33,721 nucleotides of DNA from Chromatiales bacterium. GTDB taxonomy: Bacteria; Pseudomonadota; Gammaproteobacteria; CAMYNG01. Positions 18,592-29,666 of the stretch are shown here, piece by piece. The DNA is taken from contig JALUTW010000332.1 of the NCBI GenBank assembly GCA_027021685.1, forward strand, positions 1-33,721, read 5' to 3'. The notes beneath the pieces are model-generated. The model made no database searches. It was given only the letters and a program-made list of their open reading frames with translations, and had not been told where the DNA came from. How positions within the stretch are numbered: the first letter of the stretch is position 1; each line of letters opens with the position of its first letter. A program made the translations under genes and the position numbers.

Positions 18592-18825
18592 GGGTGACTT
18601 GCGGCGCCGGGTGGCGGCTATTCTCGCACAGGGGCAAGGGCGGTGCACGGTGCGCCGTGGAACCTGTCCCGGGATCATCCGCGGCGCCGCATCGCCGGCC
18701 CGTACAATGGGGACTGTGCCGAGCGGCGCGAAGCCCACCGTGACGCCGAGGACACCTTCGGCCTTGGATAGGCGCCGGGTGTCCCCATTTTAGGCCGAGG
18801 CGGCCGCAGGCCGGACGGGGTGGGC

Positions 18826-27727: not shown

Positions 27728-28773
<1,046 letters not shown>

Positions 28774-28774
<1 letters not shown>

Positions 28775-28835
28775 AACCGGTTCCGGTGCGGCGCGGATTC
28801 ACGGCGCAGCCCGCACCCCATTTCGGAACCGGTTC
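28774..28835 (+). other. two-part stem-loop formed by two GAACCGGTTC palindromes flanking a GGTGCGG/CCGCACC stem (possible ruvB terminator or paired operator)
   Basis: 28774-28784 pairs with 28825-28835 (11 bp), and 28785-28791 pairs with 28811-28817 (7 bp). The structure starts at the last base of the ruvB stop codon. No T-tract follows. Confidence 0.4.
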
Positions 28836-28925
28836 CTGAGTCCGCCCCGAGCCCGCCACCATTCGCCACCTTTGGGTTTCGCCGGGCCATTTCGCGGCCT
28901 CATCCTCCCGGCCATGGACAGGTTC

Positions 28926-29201
28926 TATAGAACCTATCTCAGAATTCCGCGCGTGTCGCGTTGTGAGTCCACGGCCGCGCCGGCAAGGCGCGCCGCGCAG
29001 CACAGTACTCGTTGTACGGGCCAGCGGTGCAACGCCGCCGGCGTGGGCGTGGCTCGCAACCCCTTGGGGCGCCGGCGATTTTCTCCCGGGTCTCCGCCGT
29101 GGCGAAACCTGCCGGTATTGTCTCCAGCCAGACCACGTTCGTGGCGCTCTCCGAAAATCGCCAGGCGCGCGGCCGTGGGGAATTTTGAGATAGGTTCTAT
29201 A
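28926..29201. mobile_element. 276-bp non-coding element bounded by 23-bp terminal inverted repeats (MITE-like, or a long-stem structured RNA)
   Basis: The left arm TATAGAACCTATCTCAGAATTCC (28926-28948) matches the reverse complement of GGAATTTTGAGATAGGTTCTATA (29179-29201) at 22 of 23 positions. A second, perfect 12-bp arm pairs 28969-28980 with 29167-29178. Both ends carry TA. No credible ORF lies inside. Confidence 0.45.
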
Positions 29202-29203
29202 AT
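29198..29203 (+). promoter_or_regulatory. perfect TATAAT hexamer spanning the right inverted-repeat/flank junction (candidate -10 box for ybgC-tol)
   Basis: TATAAT at 29198-29203, 32 nt upstream of the ybgC ATG at 29235. There is no consensus -35 element. Confidence 0.25.
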
Positions 29204-29234
29204 GGTGCGGATTCGACAGCGCCACGGGGTGGGC

Positions 29235-29666
29235 ATGAGCGAAAGCGTGAAGCCGTTCCTATGGGAGGTGCGGGTATATTACGAAGATACGGACGCCGGC
29301 GGGGTGGTGTACTACGCCAACTACCTGCGGTTCATGGAACGGGCCCGTACCGAGTGGCTGCGCCAGCTCGGCTTCGAACAGGATGAACTCATCGAAAAGA
29401 CCGCGGTCCTATTTGCCGTGCGCTCGGCCCGCCTGGAGTTTCTCCGCCCCGCGCATTTCAACCAGTTGCTGCAGGTGAGCGTGGAGCCGGTCCGGGTGGG
29501 GCGGGCCAGCATGACGTTCCGCCAGCAGGTGCGCGTGGCCGGGACCGACACCGTCTGCTGCGAAGGGGAGGTGCGCGTCGCCAGCCTCGATGCACGGACG
29601 CTGCGGCCGCGCCCCATCCCCCGGTTCGTGCACGAGCGCCTGCCGGCCGCCCATGAGGAAAACTAA
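29235..29666 (+). CDS. ybgC: tol-pal system-associated acyl-CoA thioesterase (4HBT family)
   Basis: 143 aa with RVYYEDTDAGGVVYYANYLRFMERAR, sitting directly upstream of tolQ. An alternative ATG at 29202 would add 11 aa. Confidence 0.85.
   Translation: MSESVKPFLWEVRVYYEDTDAGGVVYYANYLRFMERARTEWLRQLGFEQDELIEKTAVLFAVRSARLEFLRPAHFNQLLQVSVEPVRVGRASMTFRQQVRVAGTDTVCCEGEVRVASLDARTLRPRPIPRFVHERLPAAHEEN

Follow-up and report, generated by a model that had tools for sequence, protein, structure and literature searches.

The wide gap between ruvB and the tol-pal cluster in this Chromatiales bacterium most probably (we put the probability at roughly 0.88) contains one copy of a 268-bp MITE, inserted at a TA dinucleotide and bearing ends of the IS5-family, IS427-group type. 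The family to which the copy belongs is a previously undescribed one from an uncultured Chromatiales-like lineage, and it is tied to IS5/IS427-type ISs. We propose that the element, which is non-coding, would be moved by a DDE transposase supplied in trans, that this enzyme would recognize the terminal inverted repeats of about 24 bp, and that integration would take place at a TA dinucleotide, which would thereby become duplicated.

The analysis concerned a contig stretch of 33,721 nt (hereafter the window), whose relevant features are collected in Table 1. The unusual distance between the two genes, pointed out in the first-pass annotation, was confirmed by the gene ends and by the Pfam assignments: the spacer measures 460 bp, from the end of ruvB at 28774 to the start of ybgC at 29235, compared with about 45 bp in a genome of the same family. 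As a separate observation, the ruvB-tolQ interval of a same-family genome (G004:C3, locus L017, 2280-2560) is too short for an intact ybgC and holds a ybgC-like start alone (GTGACCGGGTTCCTTTGG...), so that ybgC may be degraded there.

Table 1. Features of the ruvB-ybgC region, in window coordinates
Feature	Start	End	Strand	Basis
ruvB	27728	28774	+	Pfam RuvB_N, AAA_lid_4, RuvB_C
Putative older decayed copy of the same family (TA-GAACCGG...GGACAGGTTC-TA), filling the remaining spacer	28772	28927	-	Terminal motifs match the terminal inverted repeat; orthologue in the congener G001
Left copy of the duplicated TA target	28928	28929	.	One TA more than the congener's empty site
MITE core, 268 bp (GAACC...GGTTC)	28930	29197	+	Boundaries common to about 20 full-length copies in the own genome; missing at the orthologous site of G001
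Left terminal inverted repeat, GAACCTATCTCAGAATTCCGCGCG	28930	28953	+	Repeat-finder pair; near-invariant in 20 copies; first 17-22 nt equal the ends of IS5-family ISs
Arm 1, G+C-rich internal hairpin, highly conserved	28960	29060	.	Paired in the consensus fold (alignment columns 35-139)
Arm 2, conserved closing stem of the variable segment (CGCCGGCGATTTTC / GAAAATCGCC.AGGCG)	29069	29168	.	Consensus-fold columns 148-161 with 236-250
Hypervariable internal segment	29084	29152	.	Mean pairwise identity 74.9% vs 94.8% elsewhere
Right terminal inverted repeat, reverse complement GAACCTATCTCAAAATTCCCCACG	29174	29197	-	Repeat-finder pair; matches the left inverted repeats of ISs
Right copy of the duplicated TA target	29198	29199	.	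Comparison of filled and empty sites
TATAAT hexamer, 32 nt before ybgC, pre-existing and not element-borne	29198	29203	+	Same TATAAT at the congener's unoccupied locus
ybgC-like thioesterase, first gene of the tol-pal cluster	29235	29666	+	Pfam 4HBT, 4HBT_2

The inverted repeat lies where it was originally placed, since a repeat finder returned arms at 28926-28953 and 29174-29201 that are 28 nt long and 89% complementary, and the second pair of arms (28969-28980 with 29167-29178) was likewise recovered as a perfect match of 12 nt. When the copies found in the same genome were aligned together with 40 nt of flanking sequence, they showed common boundaries, GAACC...GGTTC, and similarity ended there. 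Inside these boundaries the alignment and the consensus fold define two hairpin arms, the first of which is 96-98% conserved among copies and carries no compensatory changes, while the stem of the second was also called as an inverted pair by the repeat finder. The earlier remark that the interval holds no believable ORF stands, as the open frames across the 268-bp core are broken by single-base indels among the copies.

The genome from which the window comes (G000) is a MAG whose 537 contigs add up to 2.67 Mb. The BLAST search for additional copies that the first-pass annotation had suggested gave 86 matches to the interval within this genome; about 20 of them are full-length and 80-90% identical, and several others are cut by contig ends. 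Since several contigs end inside copies, repeats of the element explain part of the fragmentation of the MAG. The copies are scattered over about 25 unrelated loci, mostly intergenic, with one inside a coding gene, and on contigs C239 and C531 tandem copies have one TA in common. In this high-G+C genome a crude open-frame test for disrupted genes was uninformative apart from one clear case, in which a full-length copy on contig C458 splits a gene of the Oxidored_FMN type (old yellow enzyme) at a point about 26 codons from its start; deleting the element and one TA brings the two parts back into frame. The split gene occupies positions 282-1258 of that contig (locus L007), and as C458 is only 1260 bp long, the disrupted gene may be a variant present in just part of the population.

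Scanning the own genome with the terminal 17-mer gave 92 sites, which pair at spans of about 270, 91, 70 and 50-54 nt. The forms of about 91, 70 and 50-54 nt, with these ends in common, are internal-deletion derivatives. At least four loci have the 91-nt form, hence its spread followed the deletion. These 91-nt derivatives are without the conserved 100-nt hairpin, yet they spread, so the hairpin is dispensable for transposition. A pair of terminal repeats 2.4 kb apart on contig C22 was considered as a possible autonomous element and rejected, because it consists of two relics flanking host genes. Elsewhere in the window, another intergenic stretch (18659-18740) contains a decayed, truncated relative of the family (GAACCTGTCCCGGGAT...) that is 82% identical to element positions 64-113.

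The mobility of the family is apparent from a comparison with a congeneric MAG, also a 'Chromatiales bacterium' (G001), whose ruvB and ybgC share 96-97% identity with those of the window. An empty ruvB-ybgC site in a relative, which the first-pass annotation had proposed to look for, is present in this genome and is exact (GGTTCTATATAATGG). The congener's locus reads GGTTC-TA-TA-TAAT, i.e., GGACAGGTTC-TA-TA-TAATGG, and the element is absent, while the locus of the window reads GGACAGGTTC-TA-TA-[268 bp]-TA-TAATGG; removal of the element and one TA from the latter leaves a sequence that aligns perfectly with G001 through the junction. The filled site thus differs from the empty one by one additional TA, in agreement with the TA target duplication suggested at the outset.

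To extend this comparison, the joined flanks of 27 copies were searched in G001. Four more sites, those of the copies on contigs C444, C361, C15 and C3, proved to be empty there, and in each case what is missing amounts to the element plus 2 bp. At C3, AT stands on both sides of the element and once in G001, and at C444 TG stands on both sides, with TA in G001; both loci point to a genuine direct duplication of 2 bp and not to bases carried by the element itself. The C361 copy, with CA...TG flanks and CG in G001, fits a simple TA duplication less well; two copies have such CA...TG flanks, one of them having CG at the empty site. Across the full copies, the dinucleotides flanking the core are TA on both sides in 10 of 20, and most of the others are one base off TA. 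One insertion (G001:C260 and G000:C215) is orthologous and common to both species, which shows that the family is older than the species split; it was active before the two species separated and has been active since.

The duplication of TA does not by itself tell the source family, and the first-pass annotation had compared the element to MITEs of the IS630/mariner type. According to this explanation, the element would be an IS630/Tc1-mariner derivative moved by a DDE_3 transposase, and both the TA target duplication and inverted repeats of 20-30 bp, which are typical of IS630 derivatives as well, are in line with it. To find autonomous relatives, we scanned species-representative genomes with a pattern of the terminal repeat. 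As this pattern was too degenerate (an estimated 140 or so chance matches were expected), only matches with an inverted partner were used. Inverted pairs spanning 830-867 bp in five genomes proved to be ISs with TA on both sides, whose transposase, of about 256 aa, matches NF033580 (IS5 family) with 224 bits and has the domains DUF4096 and DDE_Tnp_1. Among annotated plasmid genes, the nearest relatives of this transposase belong to the IS5 family, and most of the matches fall into two pieces, as frameshifted ORFs would give.

A second scan, in which the terminal repeat had to precede the beginning of the transposase gene, gave at least 120 metagenome loci, 80 of which were read. Among these 80 the modal IS length is 832 bp, TA is found on the left in 77/80 and on the right in 21/22, and the target context has C at -3 in 60/80 and G at +3 in 18/22; the target of these ISs is therefore C-TA-G with the TA duplicated. 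Published ISs of the IS5/IS427 group measure 832-865 bp and have 2-bp direct repeats, e.g., IS1248 and ISPpa2 (PMC3281130, Table 2). The placement of the recovered ISs in the IS427 group follows from their size, direct-repeat length and transposase family, not from an ISfinder comparison.

The element and the 830-834-bp ISs encoding NF033580 transposases have GAACCTATCTCAAAATT(CC) in common, and the right end of the element equals the left inverted repeat (IRL) of the ISs over 19 nt at loci L108 and L057 and at 21 of 22 nt when compared with L057, L180 and L210. The identity is limited to the terminal 17-22 nt, with no internal likeness. At the flanks of the MITE copies, Y at -3 (12/16) and R at +3 (11/16, both hand counts) show the same Y-TA-R tendency, although the C(-3)/G(+3) preference is weaker than in the ISs. 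Unlike these ISs of about 832 bp (NF033580; DUF4096 + DDE_Tnp_1), the element has no transposase gene, is 268 bp long and has a G+C-rich double-hairpin interior, and the cognate IS was not found in this organism's MAG. All of the autonomous elements recovered with the shared GAACCTRTCTCARAATT ends encode an IS5-family transposase and are about 832 bp in length, whereas IS630 members are about 1.1-1.2 kb, and no match to DDE_3 (PF13358) was detected in the own genome. Hence, despite the TA target duplication that it shares with IS630/Tc1-mariner MITEs, a derivation from that family is very improbable, and on its termini the element is best assigned to an IS5-family source of the IS427-group type. 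As its ends are those of such ISs, we infer that a transposase of this type (that of the ISs of about 832 bp that duplicate TA inside C-TA-G) would be the enzyme that mobilizes it in this organism.

Short elements (130-175 bp) that share the GAACCYATCTCAAAATT ends were also observed in MAGs of Saccharibacteria, Nitrospirae, Thermodesulfovibrionales and Gammaproteobacteria (loci L060, L061, L068, L072, L076, L077, L094, L105 and L114), and this IS group thus appears to have spawned MITEs repeatedly.

Searches of G000, G001 and the four other genomes of the order detected neither an NF033580-type transposase nor any relative of the L108 protein. The completeness of G000 and G001 is 90% and 85% (537 and 430 contigs, respectively), so the partner is either unassembled or truly absent; MAGs commonly lose multi-copy ISs, and given that these are incomplete, the failure to find a matching transposase is absence of evidence. 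The only weak IS5_3 match of the own genome, an IS1634 transposase on contig C193, was considered as a partner and rejected, being unrelated to the element. This intact IS1634-family gene (locus L155, 733-2460, minus strand; 348 bits on NF033559) lies on a short low-G+C contig, and as its codon usage looks A+T-rich for the genome, it may be a recent acquisition or a binning contaminant.

Two departures from this account, taken together, seem to us quite unlikely. The element could be a truly orphan MITE, active after the species split with no IS5-type transposase in the six genomes, which would imply cross-mobilization by an unrelated or unrecognized enzyme. Otherwise, its build could be host-selected, that is, the 100-nt hairpin (96-98%), standing beside a cassette of about 70 nt that differs almost wholly between copies and is enclosed by a conserved closing stem, would not be neutral filler. 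The cassette corresponds to alignment columns 161-235. Inside it, the copy of the window is 53-61% identical to the others, and outside it 93-99%, except for C392, which is the most diverged copy and stands at 89%. When the segment was folded separately for each copy, no shared shape emerged.

The other interpretation raised for the interval, a structured RNA, was not upheld. Such an RNA would be either a dedicated non-coding gene or a cis-regulatory leader of ybgC/tol-pal, with the long closing stem as its functional unit, and two points favor it: the 28926-29201 interval reaches -167.5 kcal/mol on the plus strand (z = -8.4, with 0 of 200 shuffles as good), and the element is placed in the 5' region of the operon. 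However, the minus strand folds about equally well (z = -6.7 against shuffles), which is the behavior expected of a DNA palindrome and alone gives no pointer to RNA. An Rfam search, which had been recommended initially, gave no match at the gathering score in the whole window, and in a permissive search of 28700-29300 no hit with E <= 1 touched the element. When 20 copies were folded to a consensus, covariation contributed -0.07 kcal/mol; only 5 of 94 pairs show any double change, and most pairs are invariant. Moreover, the congener carries the same locus without the element, and the unrelated positions of the other copies, one of them within a coding gene, likewise speak against a dedicated RNA. 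We therefore give this interpretation very little credence.

Palindromes of the REP/BIME type, which owe their dispersal to a RAYT (IS200/IS605-like) enzyme or to recombination and not to a DDE transposase, are also G+C-rich, highly palindromic and mostly intergenic, as is the repeat described here. To our knowledge, REPs have neither defined terminal inverted repeats with a target duplication nor the termini of a DDE-transposase IS, whereas the present element has terminal inverted repeats, a 2-bp target duplication confirmed by empty sites, and termini identical to those of a DDE-transposase IS; an origin of this kind is scarcely credible.

Returning to the MITE in the ruvB-ybgC spacer, the first-pass annotation had also noticed a partial copy of the right end adjoining the left end. 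This direct match is indeed present and measures 13 nt (GACAGGTTCTATA at 28917-28929, GATAGGTTCTATA at 29189-29201); we read it as the terminus of an older copy, now decayed and oppositely oriented, which would fill 28772-28927. The relic status of this stretch follows from its terminal motifs and from its orthologue in G001, which matches element positions 17-71 on the opposite strand with 80% identity (E = 3e-7); the stretch is common to both species, and BLAST of the upstream spacer (28760-28935) against the own genome gave no other copy. The present element entered the TA beside the end of this putative relic, immediately 5' of a pre-existing TATAAT, and its insertion enlarged the spacer from 190 to 460 bp.

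Two further observations concern this spacer. Inside the relic, identical palindromes (GAACCGGTTCC) lie at 28774-28784 and 28826-28836, 52 bp apart, and each has the appearance of a left end joined to a right end (GAACC|GGTTC). Collapsed ends of the element, or a site bound by a protein, are two possible readings. In addition, G001 contains dozens of copies of another repeat family, unrelated to the MITE and about 150 nt long (GCAGGCTGTTGAAAAACGGCC ... GGCCTTTTTCAACATCCTGC; e.g., G001:C150, locus L021, at about 2330-2450), and there are several in G000 (right flanks on contigs C239 and C348, as well as C312, C145 and C507). One of its copies sits in the ruvB-ybgC spacer of G001 and is absent from that of the window, hence the spacer has been struck independently by two repeat families.

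The position of the element raises the question of its influence on ybgC. The right junction had been thought to create the TATAAT and the element to supply the promoter of the tol-pal operon. However, G001 has the hexamer without having the element, which is therefore not the source of the -10; the insertion entered the TA just 5' of TATAAT, and the duplication re-forms the hexamer. No -35 could be called at 16-18 nt from TATAAT in the filled or the empty allele, and thus no -35/-10 pair was called with or without the element.

A weaker proposal, which would add to the MITE reading and not replace it, is that this copy has been co-opted, either to separate the transcription of tol-pal from that of ruvB or to provide ybgC with promoter elements. 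It draws on the insertion point directly 5' of TATAAT and 32 nt before ybgC, on the replacement of everything upstream of the hexamer, and on the upstream 35-nt region being now an A+T-rich end of the element (GGAATTTTGAGATAGGTTC). Against this stand the pre-existing -10 and the missing -35 noted above, as well as a closing stem without a terminator-like T-run after it, and we consider co-option unlikely. Any effect of the element on tol-pal transcription would be hypothetical.

The element is reminiscent of the Correia elements of Neisseria and the RUP elements of Streptococcus pneumoniae, being short, non-coding, TIR-bounded, TA-flanked, multi-copy and mostly intergenic. Correia and RUP MITEs can adjoin promoters and form long hairpins when transcribed. 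The sequences are unrelated, and the element differs from them in length (268 bp vs about 100-155 bp) and in its ends, which point to an IS5-family source. RUP, by comparison, is linked to an IS630 member, and we know of no source for the Correia elements.

The enlarged ruvB-ybgC spacer of this organism is accounted for by stacked transposon insertions. Beyond the spacer, the family attribution and the fragmentation of the MAG, the biology is ordinary and the element is of a known kind, a MITE. The two alleles form an exact filled/empty pair in which the influence of a MITE placed against a -10 box on tol-pal expression could be tested.
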